From contig JANNXA010000036.1 of assembly GCA_031409275.1 (NCBI GenBank), positions 57,839 through 121,838 of the forward strand: a stretch of DNA of 64,000 bases. Direction: 5' to 3'. Shown here one piece after another: positions 24,490-53,137 of the stretch. Under the pieces are notes generated by a model. The model worked only from the letters and a program-made list of their open reading frames with translations. It made no database searches and was not told the DNA's origin. This stretch comes from Planctomycetota bacterium (GTDB lineage: Bacteria; Planctomycetota; B15-G4; SIAN01). Position 1 is the stretch's first letter, and each line of letters opens with the position of its first letter. The translations under genes and the position numbers were made by a program.

Positions 24490-24544
24490 TAGACCTATAG
24501 GGATTCGGCCGTTCCTCGGTGCGAGGAACCTGGAGATCCAGAAG

Positions 24545-27130
24545 ATGCGAACGAGCCCACCTCTCCTCGGCGCGCTGACGGCGGCTTCGCTGTCCGTGAT
24601 CGGCGGTTGCTCCACGCACCCCGACGGAGCGACGTCGTCACCTGCCGGTGGCAACGACGCCACCGCTCCGGTTGCCACGAACGTCGCGCCGAATGTGGCC
24701 GCGGCCACACAAGACGCCGGCAGCCTGCGCGCGCAGAAAGTCGCGACGCTCGTCCAGGGCTATCTCGACAGCGCGAAGACGGCGCTTGCTCGCGGCGACG
24801 CCGAGGCGGCGCACGCGGCGCTGCTCGACGCGTATGAGATCGACCCCGGAAACCTCGAGGTCAAGAACCTCCTCGACTCGGTCGGCGTGCAGCTTGGCAA
24901 GCGGCCGAGCACCGTGGGCGATGTGGCTCGCGCGGCGGCCGACCAGGATCGCGTGCGACGCGCCCAGGCTCGACTCGAAGTCGAGAACAAGCTCGTCGAA
25001 TCGGATCAGCGCCGAGTGCAGGGCGACTTCGATGCCGCCATCCGCTCGCTGCAAGACGCCGAACTGATCCTCCGCTGGAATCCCTACCTCGGTGGCACCA
25101 CCGACATGGGAGTGACCGAAGAGTCGCTGCGCCAGCGCATCGCGGAACTGACGGCCGCGCGCGCCACGCAGGAGCGTGATGCGACGGCCGAGCGCGAGCA
25201 GCGTGCGCTCGCCGAAAAGGCGGCTCGCGAGGCCGAAGAGCGCGAACGCGCGCAGAACCTCGTCAACCGCTTCTTGCGCCAGGCCAACGACGCCTTCTAT
25301 GCCGAGCGCTACAAGGAAGCCGCCGCCTTCTGCGACCAGGTTCTCGACCTCCAGCCGCAGCACGTCGAGGCGACCGAGCTCAAGCTCACCGCGCAGCAAG
25401 CGTGGCACTCCGCCGAGCAGGATCAGTATCGAACCGCCTACAAGGACCACTGGCGCGAGATCTTCGACCAGATCGATCTCATGAACACGCCGGTCACCGA
25501 GGACATCTCGTTCCCGGCCAAGGCCGACTGGGAGAAGATCCGCAAGCAGGGCCCGATCCACTTCCGCCTTCAGGGTGAGCAGATCAAGCCCGAAGATCAG
25601 CGGATCTGGGACATCCTCAACAACACGCGCGTCGAGCTGAACTTCAACGAGACCAAGCTGCCGGACGCTGTCGAGTGGCTCCACGTCAACACCGGCATCA
25701 ACTTCATCATCGATCAGCCGGTCCTTGACGCTGGCACCGACACCGGCGCCGCCTTGACCGTCGCCTCGATCACCGCCAAGGGCGCGCTCGAGCTGATCTC
25801 GACGGTCTATGGCGTGCTCTACGTCGTGCGCGACGGGGTGATCACGATCATCACCAAAGAGACGGCGAAGGGTGGCGAGTACATCGAGATCTACGACGTG
25901 CGCGACCTCATCAACAAGGTCGCCTCGTTCCCCTCCACCGACTTCAACCTCTCTCCGTCGGGTGCGGTCGACGAGGAACCGCCGGAAGCGCCCGAGCCCA
26001 CTCCGTTCGTCATCGAGGGCGATGCGCTGCGCGACCTGATCACGAACAACATCGACCCGTCGACGTGGGAAGGCAACACCAACGTCACGATGAACCTGCA
26101 GCAGTCGGGCGCTCTCGTCGTGCGCCAGACGGCCGACGTCCACGCCAAGATCGATCAGCTGCTCTCCGACCTTCGCGCCAACGCCCGCACGATGGTCAAC
26201 ATCCAGACGCGCTTCCTCTCGCTCGAAGATCGCTTCCTCGAGGACATCGGCGTCGACTTCCGCGGGCTGAATGGGCAGAACGGCTCGTCCTCGACCGCCT
26301 CGGTGCCGAACATCGTCCTCGACGATCAGGGCACGCCGGGATCGGGCGGCGTCGGCTCGCCCGGCGCTCCGAGTGGCATCGGCACCGGCAACGATGCAGG
26401 TGCCTTCTTCACCGAGAACGGCGGCGACTTCAATGCACGCGGCCGGCTCGAGAATCTCTACGACCTGTCGCTCGGCGATGAGAGCTTCCGCGCCTCGGGT
26501 GGCGCCTCTATCGAGTTCACCTACTTCGACGACACCATCGCCGAAGCGATCCTGCGAGCGGTCACCAAGACGACCCAGTCGGAAGTGGTCCATGCTCCGA
26601 ACCTGACCGTGTTCAACGGCCAGCGCGCCCACATCAACGTCCTGAACCACATCAGCTACGTGCAGGATTTCGAGGCAGAGATCGCGCAGGGCGCCGTGAT
26701 CGCCGACCCGATCGTGAAGGTCCTCCGCGATGGCCCGACGCTCGACGTGCGTCCGGTCGTCTCCTCTGACAAGCGCTTCGTGACCATGGAAGTTCGGCCG
26801 ACGCTGCTCGACCTCGTCGAGCCGATCGCGACCTTCCGTACCTCGCTCGCAGTCGGCAACGAAGTCGAGCTGCAGCTGCCGATCCTCAAGATCCAGCGCC
26901 TGCGCACGACGGTGACGATCCCCGACGGTGCGACGCTCATGCTCGGCGGCATGAAGTCGCTGGTCGACAAGCGGCTCGACTCGGGGATCCCGTTCCTGAA
27001 GGACATTCCGCTGGTCTCGTTCTTCGCTAGCCGCAAGGGCACCGAGAAGAGCAAGACGAAGGTCATGATCTTGGTGCGTGCCAAGATCATCATCCCGGAG
27101 GAGTACGAGCCTTCGACCTCGCGCAACTGA
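24545..27130 (+). CDS. Lipoprotein secretin 1 (PilQ/GspD superfamily) with helical TPR-like N-terminus
   Basis: Start ATG 24545, leader ending VIGGC; STN/N-domain-like FNETKLPDAVEWL and YDVRDL; VNIQTRFL, APNLTVFNGQRA, LDVRPVVS, TVTIPDGATLMLGG, GIPFLKDIP. Confidence 0.9.
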   Translation: MRTSPPLLGALTAASLSVIGGCSTHPDGATSSPAGGNDATAPVATNVAPNVAAATQDAGSLRAQKVATLVQGYLDSAKTALARGDAEAAHAALLDAYEIDPGNLEVKNLLDSVGVQLGKRPSTVGDVARAAADQDRVRRAQARLEVENKLVESDQRRVQGDFDAAIRSLQDAELILRWNPYLGGTTDMGVTEESLRQRIAELTAARATQERDATAEREQRALAEKAAREAEERERAQNLVNRFLRQANDAFYAERYKEAAAFCDQVLDLQPQHVEATELKLTAQQAWHSAEQDQYRTAYKDHWREIFDQIDLMNTPVTEDISFPAKADWEKIRKQGPIHFRLQGEQIKPEDQRIWDILNNTRVELNFNETKLPDAVEWLHVNTGINFIIDQPVLDAGTDTGAALTVASITAKGALELISTVYGVLYVVRDGVITIITKETAKGGEYIEIYDVRDLINKVASFPSTDFNLSPSGAVDEEPPEAPEPTPFVIEGDALRDLITNNIDPSTWEGNTNVTMNLQQSGALVVRQTADVHAKIDQLLSDLRANARTMVNIQTRFLSLEDRFLEDIGVDFRGLNGQNGSSSTASVPNIVLDDQGTPGSGGVGSPGAPSGIGTGNDAGAFFTENGGDFNARGRLENLYDLSLGDESFRASGGASIEFTYFDDTIAEAILRAVTKTTQSEVVHAPNLTVFNGQRAHINVLNHISYVQDFEAEIAQGAVIADPIVKVLRDGPTLDVRPVVSSDKRFVTMEVRPTLLDLVEPIATFRTSLAVGNEVELQLPILKIQRLRTTVTIPDGATLMLGGMKSLVDKRLDSGIPFLKDIPLVSFFASRKGTEKSKTKVMILVRAKIIIPEEYEPSTSRN

Positions 27131-27240
27131 GACCCTGACGCCTCCTGCGCAAGGCGGGCCGAACCTGCCTCCCCCACCCGCGTTCTGAAGGAGCGTGGGT
27201 CCTTCTCCGGTCCAAGGCTGGAATTGGCAGAAGCTGCCGG

Positions 27241-27283
27241 CCGCCCGGGAGAGACAGACCCTCTCCCGGGCGGTCTCGTTCAT
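27241..27283 (+). terminator. Perfect 13-bp hairpin with weak U-tract (partial terminator or mRNA stabiliser)
   Basis: CCGCCCGGGAGAG-ACAGACC-CTCTCCCGGGCGG followed by TCTCGTTCATT. Confidence 0.5.
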
Positions 27284-27296
27284 TGGAGCCTCTCAC

Positions 27297-30191
27297 ATGT
27301 CGAATCGACTCTGGAAGTCGTGGTGGGCGTTCGGCTTGCTGGCACTTGCGACGCCCGCTCGCGCGCAATCCTGGGAACTCCAGGATGAGATCGGGTTCGC
27401 CAAGAACATGGCGCGCTATCGCCTGTTCGACCTCGCAACCGAGCACATCCAGAACATCGAGAAGGGCAACCTCACGGCAGAGGACCGCAACGCGTGCCTC
27501 TACGCACGCGCCTTCATCGAGAAGCTCGGCGGCGACTTCGACACGACGCCTGAGGGACGTCTGTCACTGCTCAAGTCCGCGATCGGCCACTACAACGAGT
27601 TCCTCGGCAAGATCGGCGCCGACAACAAGAACGGCGATGACGCGCGCTCCGAAGCGGCCGCCTGCCAGCGCAAACTCGGTGCGCTCTATGCAGAGCTCGC
27701 CGCAGCCGGCACGGATGCCGAAGCGAACAAGAAGGAAGCGGAGACCGCGTTCCGGGCCGCCGTTCAACAGCTGAACGCGTTGCACAACGCTCGCCTGAAG
27801 AAGTACGAGGCGATGCCGGAGGAAGAGGAAGACCCCAACGCCGATCCGAACGAGCCGACCCCTCGCTCTGCGAAGGATGAGGCGAAGATCGACGCCTTCG
27901 AGCCGGTCTACGAGCTCGCCGCCACCTACTACGACTGGGCGCAGCTCTATCCCGAGAACGACCTCAATCGGCAGGACTACCTGAAGAAGTCGCTCGAGCA
28001 GACCACAACCTACACGTGGGAACTCGGCGCCGAGACCATCCGCAGCTACGACGTGAACTTCTACGCCGGGCTCGCGAACATCGGATTGAACCAGCTCGAT
28101 GACGGACTCGCGATGCTCGAGTACGTCGTCAGCGCCGAGACCGGCGTGCCCGCGGTCATCGAGAACAACCCCGACCTGCCTCCCGACGTCGTCGGAGAGC
28201 TCACGCGGATGGTCGAGAAGACCTACCGCGAACTCGCGCAGATCTACAACAAGCAGACCAAGTACGCTGAAACCGACAAGCTGCAGGCGCGCGTCGAGGA
28301 GTACTACAAGAAGTTCTCCGCGCGCGGCGCCCAGCGGACCAACGTAGGCGAACTGTTCCTGCTCGAGGTCGGAGTCGCGCGCTTCAAGGCGGGCAACCCC
28401 AACGGCATGAAGCTGCTGGAGGAGATCGCCAAGCGCAACCCCGGCAACGAGGTCGGCCAGAAGGCCGGCGAGCTCATGGCCGACGCAATCCGGAGCAACG
28501 CGGGGGTCGGCGGAGCGGTCGGCAAAGTCCCGCCGAGTACCTGGATCACGACGGCCGATGCCGCCCGCAACCAGAACAAGATGTTGGACGCGATCGACAG
28601 CTACCACAACGCGATCGGCTCGCTCGAACTCGTCACCGATGCCAAGGAGCGCACCAACCTCGAGATCGCCTGCTGGTCCGACATCGGGACCTGCTACCGC
28701 AGCATGTCGCGCCACGTCGAGGCTTCCTTCGCGTTCCAGGAGGGCCTCACGCGCTGCGCCGGAGCGACCGGAATCGATGAGGAGACGGTCCAGCAGGTTG
28801 GCATCGCCTGGTACAACACGCTCGTCTCGCGCTTCAAGGAGACGAAGGACGATGCCGACAAGCGCGCGAAGGACAGCGCGCTCCGCAAGCTCGCCAGCGA
28901 CTTCAAGGTCAAGAACACCGAGTACCTGGTCGCCAAGGATGAGTTCGAACAGGCCCGCGTGCTCCCCGCCGAGAAGAAGGACGAACGGCTGAAGGCGTTC
29001 GCCGAATGCGCGCAGAAGCTCGGCGCGATCAAGGACAGCGACTCGAACTACGATCGCGCGCGCATCCTGCTCGCGCGCTGCCACGGGGAACAGGGCGAAG
29101 TCGACCCCAAGAAGTGGGAGACGGCTCTCACGACGCTCGACTCGTTCGACAAGTACGCGAAGGAGAACGAGACTCCGGCCGACAAGGCGCGCATCGTCAA
29201 TCGCGAAGTCAGCCGCACCGAGTCGACCTACTACCGCTCGGAGTACCTCCTCGACCTGAAGCGCCACGCCGAGGTGCTCGACGTCCTGAAGAGCTTCGAG
29301 AAGGACTTCCCTGCGCAGAAGGACTTCTACGCGGAGGTCAACTACCGCCGCCTGATGTCGCTGCTGGCGCTGAATCGTTTCCCCGAGGCCGAGTCGCTCT
29401 TCATCGACGTGACCAAGCAGATCGAGTCAGGCGCCCTCAAGCCCTGGCGCGACTCGGCCGGCTACTGGCTGGCGCGCGGCTACCTTGACGCTGGCGAGAA
29501 GGAAGCCGACGCGGCCAAGCAAGGCGCGCTGCTCGCCAAGGGTGCCGAGCTGATGACGGCCTACTGCCGCGCCACGGCGTACCAGAGCTACAACAACCTG
29601 CTCTCCGCCGCTGAGACGTGGGCCCGCATCAAGAACTGGGCGAAGGCGGAGGAGACCTATCGCAAGCTGATCGACGTCTTCGGCAAGGAAGCGCAGTACA
29701 AGGAGAACATCGATCTCCGCGTCCGGCGCACGCTCGCCGACGTGCTGATGAATCAGCGCAAGTTCTCCGACGCCGCGCCGCTGTTCCGGGAGCTCGAGGT
29801 TCGCTTCGCCAAGGACCCGGCGCTGCTCGGACAGGCCGCGCGCTGCTATGGCGGCTGGGTCGAGATCGTCGACCGCAAGGCGGTCGAGGTGCCGGGCGCG
29901 GGCGACTACAAGCGCGCCGTCGACCTCTGGAAGATCCTGATGGAGAAGGGCTTCAAGAAAGAGGACGAGAAGGTCACCCCTGCCTGGTTCGACGCGAAGT
30001 ACCTCTCGATCTATGCGCGCTACCGCGCGAAGGAACTCGACCCTGCGTACCTCCAGGAGGCGCAGGCGCTGATCGGCAACTTCAAGAACAACGTCTGGGA
30101 CTTCCTGAAGGACGAGCCTGACTTCTTGACCCGCATCGGCGGCGAAGAGGGCAAGCGCCGCTGGGAGTACCTGTTCGAGCGCCTCCAGTAG
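27297..30191 (+). CDS. Large exported TPR/alpha-solenoid protein (964 aa)
   Basis: Start ATG 27297 after GGAG; signal peptide ending ATPARA; all-helical TPR-like repeats; Lys-rich. Confidence 0.8.
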   Translation: MSNRLWKSWWAFGLLALATPARAQSWELQDEIGFAKNMARYRLFDLATEHIQNIEKGNLTAEDRNACLYARAFIEKLGGDFDTTPEGRLSLLKSAIGHYNEFLGKIGADNKNGDDARSEAAACQRKLGALYAELAAAGTDAEANKKEAETAFRAAVQQLNALHNARLKKYEAMPEEEEDPNADPNEPTPRSAKDEAKIDAFEPVYELAATYYDWAQLYPENDLNRQDYLKKSLEQTTTYTWELGAETIRSYDVNFYAGLANIGLNQLDDGLAMLEYVVSAETGVPAVIENNPDLPPDVVGELTRMVEKTYRELAQIYNKQTKYAETDKLQARVEEYYKKFSARGAQRTNVGELFLLEVGVARFKAGNPNGMKLLEEIAKRNPGNEVGQKAGELMADAIRSNAGVGGAVGKVPPSTWITTADAARNQNKMLDAIDSYHNAIGSLELVTDAKERTNLEIACWSDIGTCYRSMSRHVEASFAFQEGLTRCAGATGIDEETVQQVGIAWYNTLVSRFKETKDDADKRAKDSALRKLASDFKVKNTEYLVAKDEFEQARVLPAEKKDERLKAFAECAQKLGAIKDSDSNYDRARILLARCHGEQGEVDPKKWETALTTLDSFDKYAKENETPADKARIVNREVSRTESTYYRSEYLLDLKRHAEVLDVLKSFEKDFPAQKDFYAEVNYRRLMSLLALNRFPEAESLFIDVTKQIESGALKPWRDSAGYWLARGYLDAGEKEADAAKQGALLAKGAELMTAYCRATAYQSYNNLLSAAETWARIKNWAKAEETYRKLIDVFGKEAQYKENIDLRVRRTLADVLMNQRKFSDAAPLFRELEVRFAKDPALLGQAARCYGGWVEIVDRKAVEVPGAGDYKRAVDLWKILMEKGFKKEDEKVTPAWFDAKYLSIYARYRAKELDPAYLQEAQALIGNFKNNVWDFLKDEPDFLTRIGGEEGKRRWEYLFERLQ

Positions 30192-30232
30192 AGACCTTTC
30201 GCCTTCCGGCTCGGCGGTGCGCCGAACCGGGA

Positions 30233-30260
30233 TTGACCGACCCCTCGACCGACCTAAGAT
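30233..30260 (+). promoter_or_regulatory. Sigma70-like promoter
   Basis: TTGACC-N16-TAAGAT upstream of TPR2-exbB-exbD-exbD. Confidence 0.5.
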
Positions 30261-30339
30261 CCCGCGCTTCGAATCCGCCAGTTGCGACCTAGCCCGCGCA
30301 GCCCCGGCGTGTCCATCGAAGCGCTCGCGAGGTGCATTC

Positions 30340-31446
30340 GTGAGGAACAGCTCTCTCTTCTTGGCGCTCGTGGCCGCGGTGGCGGCCCCGTCGGCACGTG
30401 CGGATGAAATCCTCCAGAAGAGCGCCAAGAACCCGTTCAAGGGAACGGTGCAGTCGGAAGACATCAACAAGGTCAAGTACAAGCTTGACGGCGTCGCGCA
30501 GGTGCAGGAGATCGACTCCGCGCTGGTCGCCGACATCACCTACGACGACGCGCCGGAGGCCTTCACGAAGGGCAAAGAGTTGCTGAAGAAAGGCGACGCG
30601 GAGAACGCGGCCAACAGCTTCCGCCTCGCGCTGAAGTCGAAGACGAAGAACAACTGGATCAACGTCTACGGCAACTACCAGCTCGGCGTCGCGCTGCAGA
30701 TGTGGGGCGCGAAAGACGCCACCAAGCTCAAGGAAGCAGCGACAGTCTTCGCTCAGCTGTTGAAGGACTCGCCCGAGTGCCGCTTCATGCCGGACGCACT
30801 GAAGCGCGGCGCCGATGCGCTCGCCGCGAGCAAGGATGCCGCCGGTGCCGCCGCTCTCTACGATCGCCTCGCGGAGGTCGCGCAGCAGAAGAAGCTCGGC
30901 ATCCTCTGGGAAGCTGAGGCGCGAATCCGCAAGGCGGACGCCTACGTGACCGCCGGGATGACCAAGGAGGCGGAAGCCGCCTACGCCGCGGCCGGAAGCT
31001 TCGCCGACTCGAACGCCGCGACGCAAAAGGACGAGCCGACGAAGCGCTTGCTGCTGGCGATCGTCGGACGCGCCCAGCTCTCCCAGGGTGGCGCGCTGCT
31101 GCGAAACAAGAAGTTCGCCGAAGCGCGCCAGTTCTTCGAGAAGGTGGCGATGGGCGCCAACGCTCAGTCTGACGTCATCGCCGCGGCGCTCAACGGCGTC
31201 GGCGAAGTCCTGCTCGAAGAGGGCAAGCCCAAAGAGGCGCTGGAGCGGTTCGCTCGGGTTCGCGTCCAGTACTACCTCGCCCGGGAAGAGGCGGCCCGCG
31301 CGACGTACTTCCTCGGTAAGACCTGCCTCGCCCTCAAAGATGCCGAGCCGAACGGCAAGAAGAAGGCGGCCGATTACTTCGCGGAAGTGGTCGAACGCTA
31401 CGGCGACACCCCGTGGGCCGATCGCGCCCGCGCGGAGATCAAGTGA
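30340..31446 (+). CDS. Exported TPR protein with N-terminal small beta domain
   Basis: Start GTG 30340; signal peptide ending APSARA; TPRs ending YFAEVVERYGDTPWADRA (CpoB/BamD-like tail). Confidence 0.8.
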   Translation: MRNSSLFLALVAAVAAPSARADEILQKSAKNPFKGTVQSEDINKVKYKLDGVAQVQEIDSALVADITYDDAPEAFTKGKELLKKGDAENAANSFRLALKSKTKNNWINVYGNYQLGVALQMWGAKDATKLKEAATVFAQLLKDSPECRFMPDALKRGADALAASKDAAGAAALYDRLAEVAQQKKLGILWEAEARIRKADAYVTAGMTKEAEAAYAAAGSFADSNAATQKDEPTKRLLLAIVGRAQLSQGGALLRNKKFAEARQFFEKVAMGANAQSDVIAAALNGVGEVLLEEGKPKEALERFARVRVQYYLAREEAARATYFLGKTCLALKDAEPNGKKKAADYFAEVVERYGDTPWADRARAEIK

Positions 31447-31549
31447 CCGCCGCCACTCGCGGCGCTATTCCACCACACGGTTCCACGCCGTCCCGTTGAC
31501 GGCGCCTTCCAGGTCGGTTCGCGAACAGCAAGCTCAGGAGCACTTGTCC

Positions 31550-32275
31550 ATGACCCTCAAGAAGCTCGGTTTCACGATGCTCACGCTCGCTGCGGCATTC
31601 GCAGTCTCGGGCGTCGCCTTCGCTCAGGATGCTGCCAAGCCGCCTGACGTCTCCTTCTCCATCTCCGAGATCCTGCGTGACGGTGGCTCGATCGGCCACT
31701 TCATCCTCGTCGTCTCGGTGATCGCACTTGGCGTGTCGATCGACTTCGCAGTCAACATCCGGCGCGTGAAGATGTGCCCGCCCGAAATCGTTGAGGAGAT
31801 CGAGGCGCTCTTCGAGGCCGGCGACTATCAGGAAGCGGTCGACCTCTGCGAGGCCGAGCCGACCATGTTCACCAATGTCGTCGCCGCAGGGCTCTCGAAG
31901 GTCAATCACGACTTTGCGACCATCGAGTCGGCACTCGGCCAAGCGATCGAAGAGGAGTCGGTCAAGCTGCACACGAAGGTCGGCTGGCTCTCCTTCATCT
32001 GCTCGGCCTCGACCCTGCTTGGCCTGCTCGGCACCATCCAAGGCATGATCGTCGCGTTCAAGACGATTGCCGCCACGAAGGGCCAGGCCGACCCGTCGAT
32101 GCTCTCGGGCGGTATCTCCGCCGCGCTCATCACGACGCTGTACGGTCTCTGCATCGCGATCCCGGTCTCGTTCTCGTTCGTCATCTTCCGCAACCGCGTG
32201 ATCGCGACGACGATGGAGATCGGCACGATCATCGAAGAGCTCTTCGAGCGCTTCCGAACCAAGGCCGCTGCTTGA
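31550..32275 (+). CDS. MotA/TolQ/ExbB proton-channel family protein
   Basis: Start ATG 31550 after AGGAG; cleavable-looking leader (VAFA-Q); LLGLLGTIQGMIVAF, GISAALITTLYGL. Confidence 0.92.
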   Translation: MTLKKLGFTMLTLAAAFAVSGVAFAQDAAKPPDVSFSISEILRDGGSIGHFILVVSVIALGVSIDFAVNIRRVKMCPPEIVEEIEALFEAGDYQEAVDLCEAEPTMFTNVVAAGLSKVNHDFATIESALGQAIEEESVKLHTKVGWLSFICSASTLLGLLGTIQGMIVAFKTIAATKGQADPSMLSGGISAALITTLYGLCIAIPVSFSFVIFRNRVIATTMEIGTIIEELFERFRTKAAA

Positions 32276-32344
32276 CGTTCCGCACGTCGGCCGGAAACAA
32301 GTTCGGGGTCCTCGATCGGTCCTTGCTGAATCGGAGCTAGCGCC

Positions 32345-32827
32345 ATGAAGAAAGGCAGCATGCCGTCGATGTCGTTCGAACTCGACATGACGCCGATGAT
32401 CGACTGCACGTTCAACTTGCTGATCTTCTTCATCCTGGTGGTCGACCTCGGCCAGCAGGAGCTCGAAAAGGTCACCCTGCCGCGTGCTTCTCAGTTCCAG
32501 AAGGACGACAAGAACGAGAAGGGGCGCAAGGTCGTCAATCTTGACATTGAAGGGACCATCAAGGTCAAGCGCCGTCCCTTCGCGCTCGAGCAGCTGCGCA
32601 CCGATTTGAAGATCTGGTCGGACATGTACCCGCGTGAAGAGAACGGCCTCTGCAGCAAGTCGATCCTCATCCGGACCGACCGCGGTACCGAGATGAAGCA
32701 CGTCCAGAAAATCATGCAACTGTGCGGCGAGAAGGGGTTGCAGATCTACAAGATCGAACTCGCTTGCTCAGAGGACGCCACCGGCTTCCACGCCGTGGAG
32801 ACGCCAGGCAAGAAAGGGCTGGAGTAA
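32345..32827 (+). CDS. ExbD/TolR family protein 1
   Basis: DMTPMIDCTFNLLIFF TM with conserved Asp; ILIRTDR...VQKIM periplasmic fold. Confidence 0.9.
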   Translation: MKKGSMPSMSFELDMTPMIDCTFNLLIFFILVVDLGQQELEKVTLPRASQFQKDDKNEKGRKVVNLDIEGTIKVKRRPFALEQLRTDLKIWSDMYPREENGLCSKSILIRTDRGTEMKHVQKIMQLCGEKGLQIYKIELACSEDATGFHAVETPGKKGLE

Positions 32828-32830
32828 GCC

Positions 32831-33307
32831 ATGGGCAGCAAGAACAAGGAAATGGCGGAGTCGATCTTCACGCTCGACATGACCCCGATGATCGATTGCA
32901 CGTTCAACCTGCTGATCTTTTTCCTCTGCAACATCAACTTCAAGCTGCTCGAAGGGAAGATCCCGGCGTACCTGCCGAAGGACGTCGGCGTGAACAACTC
33001 GCCGATCACCAAGGAGCTCGAGAAGATCGAGATCCGGATCACGCGCAGCGCGTCGCCGAACGTCAAGGACAAGAACTGGTCCTGGCACGAGAACCAGATC
33101 TCGATCAACGTGCAGGGCAAGCGGATGGCGGGTCTCCAGGATTTCTACACCACGATCAAGCGGGTGCATGAAGCCAACAAGGAGGCGAAGGCCACGCTCT
33201 ATCCGGGCAAGCAGACGCTCTACATCGACAGCGTGAAGGTGATCAACGAGTGCCTGCGGGCGAACTTCGTGGACATCACGTTCGCCGGCACGCCGATGGA
33301 CAGCTGA
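32831..33307 (+). CDS. ExbD/TolR family protein 2
   Basis: Same DMTPMIDCTFNLLIFF TM; YLPKD; VKVINECLRANFVDITF. Confidence 0.88.
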   Translation: MGSKNKEMAESIFTLDMTPMIDCTFNLLIFFLCNINFKLLEGKIPAYLPKDVGVNNSPITKELEKIEIRITRSASPNVKDKNWSWHENQISINVQGKRMAGLQDFYTTIKRVHEANKEAKATLYPGKQTLYIDSVKVINECLRANFVDITFAGTPMDS

Positions 33308-35624: not shown

Positions 35625-35747
35625 TGCATCCCCGTTCCGCTCTCCACGTCCACCGCCGGATGCACGGCTAGGCAGCATTGCCGCCAGCAGCTTTGGGCGC
35701 ACTGCTAAACCCGTACACGAGAACGAGTTAGGTCCAGGTTTTTGGCG

Positions 35748-35776
35748 TTGACCACTCACAAGGGTCGGCCTAACCT
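35748..35776 (+). promoter_or_regulatory. Sigma70-like promoter for secretin 2
   Basis: TTGACC-N17-TAACCT in a 400-bp intergenic region. Confidence 0.55.
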
Positions 35777-36032
35777 ACCGCGCTCTTTCCCGGGCGCCGG
35801 CAGGGCGTTTTGCTCGGGACCGCGAGGGACCACCGCGAGGGATTTCAGGGAATTGGCCGACGGCTGGGAGCGCGCACTGCTTCGCGCGCGCTCACGATTC
35901 ACACCAGCGTGGCTTGCTCCTTGGGTCTTTCGCCTGCGACCTTCGCGGGCGCTCTTCACGAGCGCTTCTGCCGCCAGGGAAACCACGAACGCCTCGGACG
36001 GGATGGCCTCCGCCAGTCGGGAGACGAACAGA

Positions 36033-38639
36033 ATGTTGAGCTCCGCTCGCACGACGCAGCGCTTGCTGTACGCAACCCTAGCCGCCACGGCGCTTGGCGC
36101 TTGCTCTTCGTCGGATGAGTCCACCGTTTCACCGACGGCTGCGACGTCGAGCACCGCGATGCCCGACGCCAGCGTCGGCGCGGCGTCGACGGCCGCAGCG
36201 CCTCAAGCCGGTGCGCAGTCGCTCGCTCAGCAGAAGCAGCAGTTGATGCTGACTTCGGCGATGGACAACGCTCGCGCCCTGCGCGAGAGCGGCGACCTCG
36301 CCGGCGCACGCCGTCAACTCGAACAGGCTCTCTCGATCGAGCCGGGCAACGCCGAAGCGACCGCTCAGTACTTCGAAGTCCTCGAGCTGCTCGGTGAGCG
36401 GCCGGGTGACATCGGCACGGCACGCCAGCAAGCCGAGGATCGCTCCGCAGTCTCCAAGCAGCAGTTGAAGCTCGAGGCGGAGGAGTACCACCGGGTCGGT
36501 CAGGATGCTCGCAGCCGGCGCGAGTTCGACAGCGCGATCCGCTGGTTCGAACGCGTCCAGCAGTCGATCCGCTGGTCGACGCTCGACGTCGAATGGGGCG
36601 ACCTCGCCACTCGCAACGACGAGGCGCTCGCTGCGGCTCGTCGTGAACGTGACGAGGCGATCCAGAGCGACCGTGAAACGAAGCTGAAGGAAGCGGTCCA
36701 GCAGATCCGCGGCGATGAAGAGGCTGAGCGCGCGCGCCACATGAACCGCGTCGCGGGCCTCCTCGAGAGCGCGAACTACAAGTTCGAAGCCGCGGACTAC
36801 GTCGGCGCGATGGAACTGTGCGATCAGGTCCTCACCATCGAGCCGAGCAACACGACGGCTCATGAGCTCAAGCGTGAAGCGAACTCCGGCCGACGCTCCA
36901 AGCGCAGCGCCGAGTTCGCCAAGCACCGCAGCGAAGCATTCCGCAAGTTCAAGTCGGACATCGAAGAGCTGCGCATCCCGTTTTCCGACGGGCTGACCGC
37001 GGCCGATCCTGACTACTGGGCTCGTGTCACGGCGCGCACGGCCACTGGGGCCGGTGGCGCCGACGCCGCCGCGGTCGAAGATCAGCGAATCAAGGAACAG
37101 CTCAAGTCGGTGCGAGTGCCGATCGTCGATTTCACCGACGCGGACCTCGACGCCGTCTGCACGCAGCTCTCCAACTGGTCGGGTCTCACGATTCGGGCGA
37201 CCGAGACGGTTCGCTCGGAGGTCGAGTCGAACTCGACCCTGATCCAGCTCACCAACCTCACCAACCTCTCGCTCGACTCGCTGCTGACCATCGTCACCAA
37301 GCGCCTCGGCGAGAAGTTCGCGTGGACGGTGACCAACGGCATCGTCCAGATCACGACGCTCGAGGACGCGTTCGGCGCGACCAAGATCCGGACCCACGCG
37401 ATCCAGGACCTCACCTTCGGCCGGACCGACTTCAAGGGGCCGGAGATCAACAAGATCGCGTTGCCCGGCGAATACGGTGACGACGCCGAGACCTCGGTCT
37501 TCGCGGCCGACCTCGACAAGGTCATCCAGATCACGCCAGAAGACATCGTCACGTTGGTGAAGGAGAACGTGGCGCGCGAGACCTGGGAGCTCGGCGACAA
37601 GAAGTTCTCGATCGAACCCGCCGCCAGCAATCAGATCCTCGTGATCCACACCGCCGAGGTGCAGGACGAGATCGAAGCGTTCCTGAACGACCTGCGTCGC
37701 TTCACGACCACCGTCGTCCAGATCGAGAGCCGCTTCGTCGAGGTCACCGACGCCTTCATCCAGGAAATGGGTGCGGACTTCCGCGGCCTCGGTGGCGTCT
37801 TCGGCTCGAGCGTCACCCTCGATGACACGACGTCGGCGGGCGAGGACATCGCCAGCCGCGGCCTCGACAACCTCGGCACCGGGTCGACCGGCAGCTCGGC
37901 GCCCAGCGCCGGCATCTTCTTCAATGACAACTCGGACGGCGACATCCGCGGCCGCACCGAGAACTACTTCGACTCGCCGCTCGGCTCGATCCTCTCCACC
38001 ACCGGTGGCGGCTCGTTCCAGTTCGGCCTGCTCGATGACACGCAGTTCAACCTCGTCGTGACCGCCGTCGACAAGTCGGTGAACGCCGTCGAGGTGATGG
38101 CCCCCGAACTCACCGTCTTCAACACCGAGCGCGCCTACGTCACGGTGCTGAACGAGGTCTCCTTCCTCCAGGACTTCGACGTCGACGTCGCGAACACCGC
38201 GTTCATCGCCAACCCCGAGATCGGCATCCTCCAGGAAGGCGTGGTCCTCGACGTGCGCCCGACGATCTCCTACGACCGCAAGTACGTCACCCTCGACGTG
38301 CGCACGACGGTCGCCACGATCCAGCGCCCGATCGACACCTTCGAAACGACGCTGGGCGGCTTCTCGGACGCAGTCACGTTCCAGCTCCCGCGACTTGAAG
38401 TGCAGAACGCCAACACGACGGTCATCGTGCCCGACGGCGGCGCCGTGATCCTAGGCGGGCTCAAGACCTTGAACTACGTGAACCGCCGCGCGGAAGTGCC
38501 GTGGGTCTCGCGGATTCCTCTGCTCGGCTTCTTCTTCCGCCAGAAGGGCGTGGCGGACGAGTCGAAGAGCCTGGTCATCTTGGTCAAGGCGAACATCAAG
38601 GACCTGAGCCGCTTCCGCGAGGACGCTCCAGTCCGCTGA
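36033..38639 (+). CDS. Lipoprotein secretin 2, full-length paralog of secretin 1
   Basis: Start ATG 36033 after GGAG; lipobox LGAC; VQIESRFV, APELTVFNTERA, LDVRPTIS, TVIVPDGGAVILGG, VPWVSRIPLLGFFF. Confidence 0.9.
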   Translation: MLSSARTTQRLLYATLAATALGACSSSDESTVSPTAATSSTAMPDASVGAASTAAAPQAGAQSLAQQKQQLMLTSAMDNARALRESGDLAGARRQLEQALSIEPGNAEATAQYFEVLELLGERPGDIGTARQQAEDRSAVSKQQLKLEAEEYHRVGQDARSRREFDSAIRWFERVQQSIRWSTLDVEWGDLATRNDEALAAARRERDEAIQSDRETKLKEAVQQIRGDEEAERARHMNRVAGLLESANYKFEAADYVGAMELCDQVLTIEPSNTTAHELKREANSGRRSKRSAEFAKHRSEAFRKFKSDIEELRIPFSDGLTAADPDYWARVTARTATGAGGADAAAVEDQRIKEQLKSVRVPIVDFTDADLDAVCTQLSNWSGLTIRATETVRSEVESNSTLIQLTNLTNLSLDSLLTIVTKRLGEKFAWTVTNGIVQITTLEDAFGATKIRTHAIQDLTFGRTDFKGPEINKIALPGEYGDDAETSVFAADLDKVIQITPEDIVTLVKENVARETWELGDKKFSIEPAASNQILVIHTAEVQDEIEAFLNDLRRFTTTVVQIESRFVEVTDAFIQEMGADFRGLGGVFGSSVTLDDTTSAGEDIASRGLDNLGTGSTGSSAPSAGIFFNDNSDGDIRGRTENYFDSPLGSILSTTGGGSFQFGLLDDTQFNLVVTAVDKSVNAVEVMAPELTVFNTERAYVTVLNEVSFLQDFDVDVANTAFIANPEIGILQEGVVLDVRPTISYDRKYVTLDVRTTVATIQRPIDTFETTLGGFSDAVTFQLPRLEVQNANTTVIVPDGGAVILGGLKTLNYVNRRAEVPWVSRIPLLGFFFRQKGVADESKSLVILVKANIKDLSRFREDAPVR

Positions 38640-47036: not shown

Positions 47037-47409
47037 TGGCTTCGATCTCCACCAACGCTCCCTTGGGCAGACCGGCGACCGCAACGGTCGCGCGCGCCGG
47101 GCGATGGTCACCGAAACGCTCGGCATAGACCTGATTCATCGCGGCGAAGTGGCCCATGTCGGTCAGGTAGACCGTCGTCTTCACGACGTGCCCGAGCGTC
47201 GCCCCTGCCGCAGCCAGCACCGCCGTGAGGTTGTCGAACACCCGCCGCGTCTGCGCCGCGACATCACTGCCCCCCATCAACTTGCCGCCGCTGCCCGCCT
47301 CGAGTGCGACCTGCCCGGAGCAGAAGATGAGGCCGTTGGCGACGATGGCCTGCGAGTAGGGGCCGATGGCGTCGGGTGCGTTGGGCGAAGTGACGTGCTC
47401 AATGATCAC
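47023..47409 (-). CDS. ridA: RidA/YjgF enamine deaminase
   Basis: APDAIGPYSQA, SGQV, VKTTVYL, MNQVY, PARATV, LPKGALVEIEAIA. Confidence 0.93.
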   Translation of the reverse strand: MIIEHVTSPNAPDAIGPYSQAIVANGLIFCSGQVALEAGSGGKLMGGSDVAAQTRRVFDNLTAVLAAAGATLGHVVKTTVYLTDMGHFAAMNQVYAERFGDHRPARATVAVAGLPKGALVEIEAIAVR

Positions 47410-47896
47410 GCGAGGGATCCTCCGCCAGCCGCTGCTCGACGCGCGGCCGAATGCACTCGGGAACAAGACCGCGCAGATCCGCTCCGAAGCGTCCTGCGTC
47501 GCGCACGAGCCGCGCCGAAACGAAGGCGTGTTCCGGCGCCGACATCACGAACAGCGTTTCGATCGACGGCGCGAGCTTCCGGTTCATCTGCGCCATGGTC
47601 AGCTCGTAGTCGAAATCGGCGGCGCTCCGAACGCCGCGCAGCAGGCAGGAGATCCCCTGGGCGCGGGCGAACTCGACCACGAGCCCATCGAACGCGACCA
47701 CACGGGCCTTGATCCCTTCCGCGTCGAGCACCGTGCGCAGCAGCTCGAGGCGCTCTTCCACCGAGAAGCGCGACTGCTTCGCGGGGTTGCGGCCGACTGC
47801 CACCCAAAGCGCTTCGCACACAGCAGCGCCACGCCGGATCACGTCGAGGTGTCCGAGCGTCGGCGGATCGAAGCTGCCGGGGTAGAGAGCGCGCAC
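47399..47896 (-). CDS. coaD: Phosphopantetheine adenylyltransferase
   Basis: Start GTG 47896; YPGSFDPPTLGHLDVI, RGVRSAADFDYE, MNRKL. Confidence 0.95.
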   Translation of the reverse strand: MRALYPGSFDPPTLGHLDVIRRGAAVCEALWVAVGRNPAKQSRFSVEERLELLRTVLDAEGIKARVVAFDGLVVEFARAQGISCLLRGVRSAADFDYELTMAQMNRKLAPSIETLFVMSAPEHAFVSARLVRDAGRFGADLRGLVPECIRPRVEQRLAEDPSRDH

Positions 47897-47953
47897 GATG
47901 GCGGCATTGTATCGGCGAAGGTCACTGCACCCGGCGGACGACGTCTTGCGTTC

Positions 47954-50203
47954 ATGCCCGCCGCACACCGACCCGCCTCGCTGCCACCGCTCCTCGAGGG
48001 GGCTTTGTGGCTGATCCTTGCGGCGCTGCTGTGCTTGCCGATCGAGTGGAGCCTCGCGATCGGCGGCCTGCTCGCGCTCGATCCCCGCGGCGGCATCGCG
48101 CGCGGCGGGTTCTGGCTCGCGGGCGCCACGCTCGGGATCGCGGCGGGCAGCCTCCCGGTGAGCCTCGAGTCGCGATTCGACGGCTGGGTCCGTGCGCGCT
48201 CCGACCGGCAAGCGACCCGTGGCAGCGGCACCATCGCGTGGATCGAGCCGGTCGCAACGGCGTCGCCTGCCGTGACCACGCCGCTGCTGTGGCTCGACCC
48301 GAGTGCAGCGACCCTTGCCGCCGGCGACTGGTTCTGCGTCTCCGGAGTCGTGCGGTACGGCGACTCACCGCGCAATCCGGGCGGCCGACCAGGGCTCGCG
48401 ACGATGCGCGCCACGACCGCCGTCGCTCCCGACCTGGCGCGAGGCGTGCTTCCCCCGCCGCTGCGCTGGCCGCAGTGGTTGGGCGACTCGCTCGCGAGCT
48501 TGATCGATCGGCGCCTTGCGACGCTCTTCGATCCGCGCGCCGCGGCGCTCGCCCGTGCGCTGGCGCTTGGGCGGGCCGACCGACTCGACGGGCAACTACG
48601 CCAGGCGCTGCGTGATTGCGGCGCGTGGCACCTCATCGCCGTGAGCGGAAGCCACGTCGTCCTGCTCGTCGCCATGCTGCGCCCGTTGCTGCCGCGTCGT
48701 CGCCCGCGGCTCGCGCTGACGCTGGCGCTTGCCGCGGTCGGACTCTTCGTGCTGTTGTGCGGCGCGCAACCGCCGGTGCTGCGCGCAGCGATCGGATTCG
48801 CGGCGTATCAGCTGGCGCGCCGCTTCGGATTCGCGAACGGCGGCGTGCGCATCCTCGCGGCGGCGTTCCTGCTGCTGATCGCCGCCTCGCCGACCTTGCT
48901 GATGGACGCCGGAGTGCAGCTCTCCTTCGCGGCCGTCTTCGCGCTCGAAGTGGCGGGTCGCTACGGTCCGTCGCGCTCCCCCCGCGGCACCGGCCACGGC
49001 ATCGATTGGCGCGTTCCGCTCGGGCGCGCCTGCCGGGCGGCGCTCTTCGCCAGCACCGCAACGGCGCCGCTGACCGCGCTCCACTTCGGAAGCGTCGCGT
49101 GGCTGGCGCCACTCGCGACGGTGCTGCTGACTCCGCTGGTGACCGTTGGCCTGGCCACCAGCCTGATCGCAACGCTCCTCATCTGGTGGCCACCGTTCGT
49201 CACCGCGCCGTGCAACGCGCTGCTTTCAGCGCTCGATTCGATGATTGGCTCGCTCGCCGCCGCGCTCGCGGCGCTGCCGGCCACGCCGCTCGAAGTCGTT
49301 CCTCCCTCCCTCTTCGCGCGCCTCGCACTGCTCGGGTTCTGGGTCGCGCTTTTCCTGCGGCGCACGGGCGTCGCGCTGCTGGTGGCGGCGGCGCTGCTCG
49401 TGCGGTCGCTCCTCCCTGCGACCGTGGCGTCCGTGATGCCTCGTTCCACCACCCCTTCCACGAAGCAGCGCGCCACGCTCGATCTGCTCGATGTCGGACA
49501 TGGACAAGCGATCCTGCTGCGCGATGCCGAAACGGCGTGGCTCTTCGACAGCGGCAGCAGCCAGTGGGACGATGCGGCGCCGCTGGTCAACGCGCTGCGC
49601 GCGCTCGAAGTGCCGGCGCTCGACGGCTTGATTCTCTCCCACCTCGATGCGGATCACTGCAACCTCGCCGCCTCCCTGATGGATCGATGGCCGATCGCGG
49701 CGCTCTACGTTTCGCCGCAGGCCGACGCCGAACTGAGGAGCGTGTCCCACGGCCCGCTCGCCGATCTGGCCGCGCGAGCGCGGGCTCGTGGCATACCGCG
49801 ACGCGTCGTCACCGCCGGCCAGAACGTGGGCGTCCACCGCGTGGTCTGGCCACCCTCCGAACGCCGTTTCAGCGCCCGCAACGACGCCTCTCTCGCCGTC
49901 GTCGCGAAACTCGCCGAACAGCAGGTGCTGTTGCCCGGCGACCTCGAGGGCTATCCGCTGCTCGATCTGGCGCACCGCATCGACGACGCAATCGACCTTC
50001 TGGTGCTGCCGCATCACGGCAACCGCGACGCCGGACTCGCCACCCTCCTCGAGCGAACGCGAGCGCGCCTTGCCTTCGCGAGTCGCTCTGAAACGGAGCT
50101 GCCGCCGGAAACCGTGCGCGCGCTCGCCGAGCGCTGGGTTCCGTGGCGATCGAGCGCACGGAGCGGGTGGCTCCACTACGACGCTTCGGAGCGGTTCCGA
50201 TGA
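47954..50203 (+). CDS. comEC: ComEC/Rec2 DNA uptake channel with metallo-beta-lactamase domain
   Basis: HLIAVSGSHV, PVLRA, QLSFAA, LDVGHGQA, SHLDADH, PGD, PHHG; start uncertain. Confidence 0.9.
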   Translation: MPAAHRPASLPPLLEGALWLILAALLCLPIEWSLAIGGLLALDPRGGIARGGFWLAGATLGIAAGSLPVSLESRFDGWVRARSDRQATRGSGTIAWIEPVATASPAVTTPLLWLDPSAATLAAGDWFCVSGVVRYGDSPRNPGGRPGLATMRATTAVAPDLARGVLPPPLRWPQWLGDSLASLIDRRLATLFDPRAAALARALALGRADRLDGQLRQALRDCGAWHLIAVSGSHVVLLVAMLRPLLPRRRPRLALTLALAAVGLFVLLCGAQPPVLRAAIGFAAYQLARRFGFANGGVRILAAAFLLLIAASPTLLMDAGVQLSFAAVFALEVAGRYGPSRSPRGTGHGIDWRVPLGRACRAALFASTATAPLTALHFGSVAWLAPLATVLLTPLVTVGLATSLIATLLIWWPPFVTAPCNALLSALDSMIGSLAAALAALPATPLEVVPPSLFARLALLGFWVALFLRRTGVALLVAAALLVRSLLPATVASVMPRSTTPSTKQRATLDLLDVGHGQAILLRDAETAWLFDSGSSQWDDAAPLVNALRALEVPALDGLILSHLDADHCNLAASLMDRWPIAALYVSPQADAELRSVSHGPLADLAARARARGIPRRVVTAGQNVGVHRVVWPPSERRFSARNDASLAVVAKLAEQQVLLPGDLEGYPLLDLAHRIDDAIDLLVLPHHGNRDAGLATLLERTRARLAFASRSETELPPETVRALAERWVPWRSSARSGWLHYDASERFR

Positions 50204-50305: not shown

Positions 50306-51502
50306 ATGGTCTGGACGTGGTTCTTTCCGATCGTCGCGTCGGCCCTGTCGCCCGCGCTGACTCCGGGTCCAACTCCGGAGCCGACCCCGGATGTCGTCGA
50401 GCTGCACGATGGCTCGCGACTCGTGGGCGAGATCCACTCGACCGCGGACGGGATCACACTCGAAAGCGCGCTCGGCTGCCTCCATTTCGCGAGCCGCGAG
50501 ATCGCTCGCCTCGAACGGCGCAACGACCTGCTGCCACGTGTCCGCAACGCGCTCCGCGCCGCCGGAGAACAAGGTCACGCGCTGCTGGCCGTTGCCACCT
50601 TCGCGCTCGATCGCGGCCTCTATCCGGAAGCCTTCGACGCGCTCGATGCGGCCGCGGCCGCGTCGGCGCCCCCGCAAGCGATGGGCGAGTTCGCTGCCGA
50701 GCTCGACGCGGCGGCGCTCCTCGAGGGGTGTGGGCGCGGCCGACCGCCGCAATCGGAAGCCAACCGCTGCGCCCTGCTCGCCCGCGTCGGCGGTCGGAGC
50801 CTCTCGCGCGCGGCCTTCGCAAGACAGCGGCTCCTCGAGATCGAGCCGCAGTCGCGCACCGACTTCCTGCTCGATCGGCTTGCCCGTGGCAGCGCCGTCG
50901 AGCGACGGGCGGCGGTCACGCTCCTCGCGGCCGAGCCGAACGCACGCGCTTTGGGCAAGCTTGTGCGCGCGTCGCTGCTCGACTCCGACGCCGCCGTGCG
51001 CGACGGAGCGCGCACCGCCGCCCTCGCGTCGCACCACCCGCAACTCGTGACGGCCTACCTTCCGGCGCTTGCCACCGATTCCGCGACGCTGCGGCAACGG
51101 GCCTATCCGGCGCTGGCCGAACTCAAGGATCCGCGCGCCGTCGATGGCTTGATCGGCATGCTCGAACCGCGGCCGGCGCCGGCTGGCAGCGGCGGCGGCT
51201 CGACCCCTCCCCGCGCCAACGTCTTCTTCGGTGAGCAGCGCGCCTTCGTCCAGGACTTCGACGTCGAGATCGCGAATGGGGCCGTGATCGCCAAGCCGGT
51301 GATCGGCGTGCTGCAGTCGGGCGTCGCGCTGGATGTCGCCGTGGCGGGCGTCCTCGTCATCCGGACCGAGGAGCGGCGGGTCGTGGTCGATGCGCTGCAG
51401 CGTCTGACCGGCCAGTCGTTCGGCAGCGATGCGGCGGCCTGGCGCAACTGGTGGAGCGCGCAACACGGCGAGCTGCCCGCGGACACCGCTTCGCGCCGCT
51501 GA
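50306..51502 (+). CDS. Exported HEAT-repeat protein containing a secretin-like beta-hairpin segment
   Basis: Start ATG 50306 after GGAG; DVVELHDGSRLVGEI; HEAT-like helices; insert RANVFFGEQRAFVQDFDVEIANGAVIAKPVIGVLQSGVALDV; ALQRLTGQSFGSDAAAWRNWW. Confidence 0.8.
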   Translation: MVWTWFFPIVASALSPALTPGPTPEPTPDVVELHDGSRLVGEIHSTADGITLESALGCLHFASREIARLERRNDLLPRVRNALRAAGEQGHALLAVATFALDRGLYPEAFDALDAAAAASAPPQAMGEFAAELDAAALLEGCGRGRPPQSEANRCALLARVGGRSLSRAAFARQRLLEIEPQSRTDFLLDRLARGSAVERRAAVTLLAAEPNARALGKLVRASLLDSDAAVRDGARTAALASHHPQLVTAYLPALATDSATLRQRAYPALAELKDPRAVDGLIGMLEPRPAPAGSGGGSTPPRANVFFGEQRAFVQDFDVEIANGAVIAKPVIGVLQSGVALDVAVAGVLVIRTEERRVVVDALQRLTGQSFGSDAAAWRNWWSAQHGELPADTASRR

Positions 51503-51565: not shown

Positions 51566-53137
51566 ATGCAGGACGAACCGATCGATCCCGACCTCGTGGA
51601 GTCGCTGGCACGCGCGCGCGGAGCGACGTTGGCGGATCTCGCGGCCGTGCCAGTCGAGGTCGAAGTTCGGCTGCTGCGCGGGCTGCTCGGCCTCGTGAAG
51701 ATCATCGGGCTGCCCGATTCTGCGCTGCGCGAGAGTCGCGAACGGGTGAGCGCCGCCACCGAGGCCAGCGGCCTTTCGTTCCCCGACCGCTCGATCTTGG
51801 TCAACCTCGCTCCGGCCGAGACCCGCAAGGTCGGACCTGGCCTCGACCTGCCGATCGCCTGCGCGATCCTGGCGGCGAGCGGCCAACTCCCGCTCGAATC
51901 GCTCGAGGCGCCCTTGCTCTTTGGCGAGCTCGCGCTCGACGGACGCCTGCGCGCAGTGCGAGGGGTGGTGGCGGTCGGCCTGCATGCGCGACGCGAGGGG
52001 CGCCGTCTGGTGGTGCCGCGGGCCGCGCTCGCCGACCTCGCGCTGGTGCGCGGGCTCGACGTGGTCGGAGTCGACTCGTTGCGCGACGTCGTGAAGCGGC
52101 TGCGCGGCGAGGTGGAGTTCGCCCCGTCGCCGCTGCCCGAAGTCGCCGCGTCCGGAGGTGAGAGCGACGCCGATGCCACGCTGTTCGATTCGATCGTCGG
52201 ACAGGATGAGGCGAAGGCGGTCGTGCTCGCGGCGGCTGCGGGCGGCCACCACTTGCTGCTGTCTGGTCCGCCCGGCAGCGGCAAGAGCATGCTGGCGCGA
52301 GCACTCGCGACGCTGCTGCCGAATCTCGACGAGTCGGCAGCACTCGAGGTCTCCTGCATCCATTCCGCGGCCGGACTCGCCGCCCGTGAGTCGCCGCTGC
52401 GCCCGCCCCTGCGGGCACCGCACGGCTCAGTGACCGTCGCGGGGCTCGCCGGCGGTGGAACTCCGCCGCGACCGGGGGAGCTCACCCTGGCTCACCACGG
52501 AGTGCTCTTCCTCGACGAGTTGCCCCACTTTCGCCGCGAGGCGATCGACTTGCTGCGCGCGCCGCTCGAGGAGGGAGTCATCGCGCTCGCTCGCGGCGGA
52601 CGGACGCACCGCTACCCGACGCGCTTCCAGCTCGTCGCGGCGATGAACCCCTGTCCGTGCGGCAACGCAGGCGAGCCGAACAGCGCCTGTTCCTGCTCGC
52701 CGGCCATGATCGAGCGCCATCGCGCGCGTGTCAGCGCTGCGATCCTCGATCGCATCGACCTCTCCGTTCGCGTCCCCTTCGTGCCGTCCGATCGGCGCCG
52801 CGCCTCACCCGCCTCACTGGGACGCGACGCCGCGCGCGCACGCATCGCGGCCGCGCAACGACGGGCACGCGCACGCAACGGCGGCGTGCTGAATGCCGCG
52901 CTGCCCGCCGCGGCGCTGACCGCCGGGATCACGCTCGACCGCACTTCACGCGACTGGCTGGCGACGACCGTCGATCGTCTGCGCCTGTCGCTTCGAGCCC
53001 ACCACCGGCTGCTGCGGGTGGCGCGGACGCTCGCCGATCTCGACGAGGTCGACGCAATCGAGCAGCGCCATCTCGTGCGCGCCCTCACCTGGCGCGAACC
53101 GGAGCGCAGCGATGGCGGCCGCGAGATCCGATCGTGA
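51566..53137 (+). CDS. comM: ComM/YifB Mg-chelatase-like AAA+ ATPase
   Basis: IIGLPD..ESRERV, NLAPA, DLPIA, GELALDG, GPPGSGKSM, RPGELTLAHHGVLFLDE, AAMNPCPCG, RVARTLADL. Confidence 0.93.
   Translation: MQDEPIDPDLVESLARARGATLADLAAVPVEVEVRLLRGLLGLVKIIGLPDSALRESRERVSAATEASGLSFPDRSILVNLAPAETRKVGPGLDLPIACAILAASGQLPLESLEAPLLFGELALDGRLRAVRGVVAVGLHARREGRRLVVPRAALADLALVRGLDVVGVDSLRDVVKRLRGEVEFAPSPLPEVAASGGESDADATLFDSIVGQDEAKAVVLAAAAGGHHLLLSGPPGSGKSMLARALATLLPNLDESAALEVSCIHSAAGLAARESPLRPPLRAPHGSVTVAGLAGGGTPPRPGELTLAHHGVLFLDELPHFRREAIDLLRAPLEEGVIALARGGRTHRYPTRFQLVAAMNPCPCGNAGEPNSACSCSPAMIERHRARVSAAILDRIDLSVRVPFVPSDRRRASPASLGRDAARARIAAAQRRARARNGGVLNAALPAAALTAGITLDRTSRDWLATTVDRLRLSLRAHHRLLRVARTLADLDEVDAIEQRHLVRALTWREPERSDGGREIRS

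Follow-up and report, generated by a model that had tools for sequence, protein, structure and literature searches.

A HEAT-repeat protein encoded in the window (the whole stretch of 64,000 nucleotides of planctomycete DNA analysed here; coordinates in Table 1) carries a copy of the central gate hairpin, Gate 1, of secretins. Our data show that this is a real, phylum-wide feature of Planctomycetota, apparently undescribed so far, and sequence comparison points to a strong evolutionary link with secretins. In protein alignments across many genomes the copy demonstrably co-varies with the cognate secretin. We suggest that the protein may be a periplasmic partner that pairs with the gate of its own secretin, as a plug or as a keeper during assembly, a reading to which we give an even chance of being right.

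Table 1. Features of the window discussed in the text, with positions counted from its first nucleotide
Feature	Position	Strand	Details
Gate-copy HEAT protein gene	50306..51502	+	398 aa from ATG 50306; frame open from TTG 50249
Hydrophobic N-terminus, likely signal peptide (residues 1-25)	50306..50380	+	Hydropathy peak in 20/21 homologues
Small all-beta domain (residues 26-70)	50381..50515	+	AF2 strands 28-70
TPR-like helical hairpins (71-137), then HEAT repeats (about 145-290)	50516..51175	+	AF2 pLDDT about 90 or more
Pro/Gly linker ahead of insert	51161..51211	+	Sequence; low pLDDT
Secretin-derived insert: inner-barrel strand, Gate 1 hairpin, inner-barrel strand	51212..51337	+	Residues 303-344
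Helices closing the interrupted last repeat, conserved W-x-x-W end	51365..51460	+	Alignment, AF2
Secretin 1, TPR-containing, lipobox-like Cys	24545..27130	+	PF00263 over cut-off; Gate 1 segment 26624-26749
Secretin 2 ORF, true start probably later	35742..38639	+	Pfam Secretin over cut-off; Gate 1 segment 38130-38255
Two TPR proteins, ExbB-like, two ExbD/TolR-like genes between the secretins	27195..33307	+	Context
comEC/Rec2 ORF directly upstream of HEAT gene	47366..50203	+	PF03772 and PF00753; TIGR00360 over cut-off; true start probably later
YifB/ComM-family Mg-chelatase-like ATPase directly downstream of HEAT gene	51566..53137	+	TIGR00368 over cut-off

The first-pass annotation of this DNA had quoted a 42-residue translation of the insert and its ungapped alignment to both secretins of the window. 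Translation returned the same residues, and the identities were reproduced at 21/42 with secretin 1, 24/42 with secretin 2 and 19/42 between the two secretins. A phmmer search of the genome (5.6 Mb, 63,810 six-frame ORFs) with the 42-mer found, besides itself, only these two secretins (E-values 6.9e-8 and 3.1e-6; next match 0.33), so the similarity is beyond chance. The annotation's placement of the segment at the central gate, with one inner-barrel strand on each side, agrees with alignment to the f1 phage secretin pIV, with hinge spacing and with an AlphaFold2 (AF2) model of secretin 1. The alignment of secretin 1 with pIV spans the gate region (E 2.9e-12); the hinges of pIV Gate 1 are G267 and G297 according to the available text of PMC8563730, and G309 and G339 of the HEAT protein stand at the matching places with the same 30-residue spacing. 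G339 is kept in 58 of 59 HEAT copies and the first-hinge glycine, G309, in 32 of the 59. In the AF2 model of the secretin-1 domain, which resembles PilQ, GspD and InvG in fold (E 1e-14 to 1e-10, TM about 0.5), the gate stretch forms a long hairpin (strands 154-167 and 170-192); the same hairpin has pLDDT under 50 in the monomer model of the carrier. In secretins the Gate 1 hairpin is the physical barrier, and on pore opening it unkinks and packs on the outer barrel, as the accessible part of PMC6155069 describes. It should be noted that the first hinge position is Ile, Leu or Val in 84 of 107 planctomycete secretin segments (53 genomes) instead of the Gly of pIV and GspD; InvG likewise has no Gly there, yet closes (PMC6155069, in the part available).

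The carrier is not a full secretin. Secretin profile A4 matches it only over profile positions 149-191 of 307, it does not combine an outer with an inner barrel, and Pfam finds no Secretin (PF00263) match in it. An insert placed after a Gly/Pro linker between HEAT helices of a non-secretin protein had been the original description, and it holds by sequence, AF2 and Pfam alike. The AF2 monomer model, built on 21 homologues, has a mean pLDDT of 81 and is called confident. It places the insert between predicted helices 277-284 and 354-368, with the closing helices at 354-385, and leaves residues 294-350 with no resolved fold (pLDDT under 50). Within the insert the Gate 1 hairpin corresponds to G309-G339 (51230-51322), and beta-type sequence runs on to about residue 350. 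Over 91-96% of the carrier length 20 homologues align, and the insert is the best-conserved 42-residue stretch of the protein, with a mean identity of 0.58 to 29 orthologues versus at most 0.40 in non-overlapping stretches. Of the three refuting conditions named in the first-pass annotation, two, a place outside the gate and a lack of conservation in orthologues, thus do not apply. High conservation together with the absence of a monomer fold suggests a segment that folds on a partner, as is usually seen.

Stacked two-helix repeats, as expected of a HEAT-repeat protein, are evident in the AF2 model and from Foldseek, which matches the helical part to HEAT-like alphaRep proteins; VIA-align gives TPR and HEAT matches, and the structure searches of the monomer otherwise returned generic helical-repeat matches. 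In Pfam the HEAT_2 match is only sub-threshold: PF13646 stays below the cut-off in the carrier itself, but is among the precomputed annotations of 12 of 21 close homologues. No NCBIfam model covers the carrier, and databases name its family only ‘HEAT repeat’ or ‘hypothetical’, with the insert unannotated. The small beta domain resembles residues 192-237 of biotin protein ligase 2ej9 in VIA-align (Z 7.7, rmsd 1.2, 45 aligned), which is to be taken as a lead only. The hydrophobic N-terminus, found in nearly all homologues, suggests that the protein is exported. Pilotins are by definition outer-membrane lipoproteins, and the N-termini of the 21 homologues have no invariant or near-invariant Cys that would place the family among them. 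At the hairpin tip (51275-51277) Asn is found in the window protein and Gln in 19 of 20 close homologues; the rest of the tip is like that of secretin 1 and the stem resembles secretin 2, which gives the copy the look of a mosaic of the two.

Of 19 genomes of the class with a completeness of at least 90%, 17 have the family, mostly in single copy. Counted among the matches listed, 102 of 301 Planctomycetota genomes, about a third, have a match at E 6.6e-27 or better; the weaker matches, of which a part was opened, are mostly generic HEAT repeats or secretins. The hairpin is present in all 40 further loci opened. A profile of the hairpin alone finds 115 proteins, nearly all of them HEAT proteins of about 400 aa or secretins, and the remaining few are shortened secretin-like proteins. 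Named homologues come from Planctomycetes MAGs, a DNA-pattern scan of named genomes gave 5 close loci, all in planctomycete MAGs, and Atlas matches are Planctomycetota clusters only. A profile search of 1.84 billion representatives was dominated by long generic HEAT proteins, with the hairpin covered in none of the 150 best stretches listed, and is uninformative on the range outside the phylum. In families f8 and f33, with five genomes each, the searched gate sequence occurs only in the secretin, and these ten genomes indicate that the copy is not needed by all planctomycete secretins. Two HEAT orthologues of family f8 (L137 and L138, in G158 and G078) have a longer, unrelated insert at the same place; the scaffold thus presents different inserts in different lineages. 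Tandem HEAT paralogs occur in several genomes. G150 (90% complete) has two HEAT copies, and no full secretin was found in it.

The copy co-varies with the secretin of the same genome, which supports the idea of a gate mimic. Here 65 HEAT copies of 59 genomes were set against 118 secretin segments; TGA-split fragments, one truncated copy and four loci without a profile-found segment (L057, L079, L085, L193) were left out. In the gate core, between the hinges, identity to the best own-genome secretin is 0.68 versus a mean of 0.51 to secretins of other genomes, and 61 of the 65 copies lie above their own non-cognate mean; on the flanking strands the values are 0.51 and 0.49. Since kin are not independent, we turned to a cross-match statistic; a single capture of the hairpin, followed by evolution separate from that of the secretins, would give it an expected value of zero. 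For 58 genomes of 27 families (G110 was dropped, its second gate being missing), 1512 of 1584 between-family genome pairs were positive and 43 negative, and among disjoint pairs on average 12.3 of 13 were positive, with a minimum of 10. The flanks gave 820 positive versus 455 negative pairs, and 7.0 of 13 disjoint ones. Pairs from the same family give a weaker signal (28 positive, 15 negative, 26 tied). The hairpin tree points the same way: built from 75 hairpins of 24 of the compared genomes over 29 columns, hence with rough support, it unites the HEAT copies as one clade in 0 of 200 bootstraps, and its starred branches force at least 8 label changes.

Shared length changes are the clearest individual cases. 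A 4-residue insertion is common to the HEAT copy and one secretin in seven genomes (G294, G105, G137, G189, G177, G065, G062), and a 4-residue deletion is common to both in G094, with 19/19 identical residues. G094 and G062 (26/27 identical) were looked at only once the statistics were complete, and act as held-out checks. G093 and G181 have two HEAT genes each, one matching each secretin paralog, with identical stretches of 23/23, 23/24 and 28/28 residues. For the window protein itself tracking is weak (0.55 to its own secretins, 0.51 to others), and the genomes of its family, G001-G003, stand at percentiles 0.22-0.39, though the secretin-1 tip motif of the family is shared. One secretin gate assigned to G002 (L231, contig C172) is of f9 type rather than f1; the contig is possibly misbinned and lowers the cognate score of that genome. 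Tracking of this kind speaks for a shared constraint and is not evidence of what binds what.

Selection maintains the match, since silent sites have mostly diverged while the amino acids are equal. Where HEAT copy and secretin have the same residue, they also use the same codon in 1106 of 1697 cases (65%); for secretin paralogs within a genome the figure is 898 of 1320 (68%). In G294 only 12 codons are the same over 25 matching residues. G221 and G155, with 96-97% DNA identity over the matched stretch, look like recent conversions, and the longest identical DNA runs are longer between HEAT copy and secretin (median 17) than between secretins (median 12). The copy has probably been renewed by occasional sequence transfer and then kept equal to the gate by purifying selection. 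We rejected recent gene conversion as the only cause, given the silent-site divergence of most lineages.

In the window, secretin 1 lies downstream of pilM-like genes (the pilM match is weak), and its hairpin tip matches the HEAT copy. The two secretins flank a TPR-TPR-ExbB-ExbD-ExbD block (21078-38639 with the pilM-like genes), and the whole can be read as a secretin locus of pilus type combined with a motor driven by the proton-motive force. Most genomes searched likewise have a pair of such secretins, spaced by about 10 kb. Ten genomes of the order, including that of the window, have the HEAT gene and a secretin on one contig, about 11-30 kb apart; in G035 the HEAT gene is unlinked. A scan for promoters and terminators between comEC and comM found none on the + strand. 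Among 30 near loci (1.5-kb flanks), 22 have comEC upstream and 13 have comM downstream; among 40 further loci, 3 have comEC next to the gene and none has comM there. The comEC-comM neighbourhood is thus confined to some lineages, and these counts led us to reject a universal competence role; a DNA-uptake role in this lineage is plausible, though not the defining feature of the family. At 58877-62356 (minus strand) the window encodes a Gly-rich protein of 1159 aa, perhaps a surface protein, which has a lipobox-like Cys as well as an Ig-like domain (PF13205).

The reading we favour starts from a copy of the cell's own Gate 1 hairpin that has been kept matched across lineages. The protein would be likely to reach the periplasm with its hairpin, as predicted for the free monomer, unfolded, and the hairpin would fold on binding, either replacing a resident gate hairpin or packing beside it through like-with-like beta contacts. 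Such contacts would explain why the copy must equal the resident gate, and they are the simplest reason for a match confined to the gate between the hinges and not extended to the barrel strands. One or few copies per ring could be accommodated, because many HEAT bodies would not fit an N3 ring of roughly 74 Å, the size given for pIV. The bound protein might seal the channel until the pilus or secretion machine docks, and we count the known lumen-binding secretin plugs, SlkA and SlkB, as support. In this lineage the client would most likely be secretin 1, which is PilQ-like and lies behind the pilM-like genes. The gate mimic envisaged in the first-pass annotation is supported in part: the mimicry gains from co-variation with the own-genome secretin, and physical binding and its mode (plugging, opening or chaperoning) are conjectural; a plug and an opener would be indistinguishable in these data.

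Other explanations have to be weighed against a partner that pairs with the gate. We think it unlikely, though worth keeping in mind, that the copy is a decoy or hand-over device which binds a third party of the real gate (pilus tip, substrate, or a factor of assembly or quality control) and holds or titrates it in the periplasm without any gate pairing. Cognate matching limited to the gate proper is explained equally well in this way, and shortened secretin-like proteins with similar hairpins are as expected of a tag used by several proteins; however, one HEAT paralog per secretin paralog would demand two paralog-specific ligands, and no conserved ligand gene stands beside the HEAT gene in 40 distant loci. 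Distinctly improbable, in our opinion, is an oligomer formed through the roughly 48-residue hairpin, that is, a narrow barrel stacked on the secretin or co-assembled with the shortened secretin-like proteins. Retention of the two flanking inner-barrel strands, beta-type sequence as far as residue 350, a segment that AF2 leaves unfolded as a monomer and tandem paralogs in several genomes would all suit such a ring. A self-contained ring, however, has no need to follow secretin indels, and a ring docking on the gate would be a form of the pairing we propose. Since the gate proper tracks and the flanks barely do, the data argue against the secretin-independent beta-ring suggested at first pass and also against replacement of a full protomer.

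It is improbable, too, that the copy is a gate opener for DNA uptake, wedging between or displacing the gate hairpins so that DNA or a retracting pilus could pass, with ComEC and ComM. The neighbours in the near loci, the position of secretin 1 behind pilM-like genes and the many PilB/PilT-family ATPases of the genome would favour it, but in the further loci, where comEC is rare and comM absent, the gate match is equal or stronger. A recombination by-product, i.e. a captured secretin fragment periodically overwritten by gene conversion and with no gate-related function, is already disfavoured and in our view scarcely credible: shared indels do require sequence transfer at some time, and the near-identical DNA of G221 and G155 and the longer identical runs would fit, but silent sites are at the genome baseline in most lineages with the amino acids still identical, the match stops at the hinges, and no part of the protein is better conserved than the segment.

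A literature search on planctomycete secretins, gates, HEAT repeats, pili and competence found no paper on this family, with subscription journals thinly covered and supplements outside the search; a gate-copy protein is a kind of channel partner absent from the literature found. Gate 1 of known secretins (PF00263; f1 pIV 7OFH, InvG, GspD, PilQ) is the same hairpin, with hinge positions 30 apart and flanking inner-barrel strands, but here it sits in a helical-repeat protein with no outer barrel, Gate 2 or N3 domain. The scaffold fold is shared with bacterial PBS-lyase-type HEAT repeat proteins (PF13646, PF03130; alphaRep). Helical repeats are also the fold of PilF/TadD-type secretin partners. 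The tip is disordered and variable in pIV, in the available text of PMC8563730, whereas the planctomycete tip is conserved. The role proposed for the HEAT protein is that of SlkA and SlkB, periplasmic plugs of Pseudomonas aeruginosa PilQ that occupy the lumen at gate level and keep it sealed up to the docking of the pilus machine; the likeness is by description only, and the accessible part of that account describes no gate-derived sequence in them (PMC13392014). Pilotins and accessory proteins (AspS, PulS, MxiM, InvH, PilF/TadD, TsaP, BfpG) are likewise dedicated partners of a cognate secretin, but they bind the outside of the channel or of the N3 ring, and none is described with a gate copy in the available portion of PMC12531336. 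InvG has in N3 a beta-INSERTION, a beta-hairpin on which both Gate 1 and Gate 2 are propped and by which opening is controlled; it belongs to the secretin itself, and the text available does not present it as a gate copy (PMC6155069).

How secretins are sealed during assembly and how pilus-type secretins open are still open questions in the field, and data on the open state are lacking for T2SS and T4P secretins according to the accessible part of PMC12531336. If true, a natural gate copy encoded separately from its channel would be a new principle of channel control. The copy would also be a ready probe for trapping gate states, and cognate pairs with shared indels make the idea directly testable by swaps. 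Finally, a large unannotated family of Planctomycetota gains a testable role in a poorly understood envelope.

A wider reading is possible, but we hold it as tentative. In many planctomycetes each secretin might have a dedicated exported HEAT protein whose copy is re-matched at every change of the gate. Inserted among the resident hairpins, the copy would provide the seal in trans or lock it. Such self-mimicry, combined with the shortened secretin-like proteins and the paralogs that have an in-frame UGA at the tip, would amount to modular, possibly redox-tunable gating. The hinge contrast, with secretins mostly Ile, Leu or Val (84/107) and copies often Gly (32/59), is cited for this reading. 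Tandem HEAT paralogs at L034, L037 and L049 (G110, G093 and G178) have an in-frame TGA at the hairpin tip, at the position of N324; the hairpin continues behind the TGA, and these make up 3 of the 14 hairpin motifs listed. A selA gene was over the cut-off in 5/5 genomes searched, including these three and the genome of the window, and in-frame TGA together with selA would fit selenocysteine at the tip. The shortened secretin-like proteins (L116, L117, L122, L131, L304, L306; P0271, P0273-P0275) carry one or two units of inner-barrel strands with a Gate 1-like hairpin, and their match to secretin 1 ends before the C-terminal outer-barrel strands. Two of this kind, both strongly diverged, are encoded in the genome of the window (C34:131664-133436 and C55:351731-353617).
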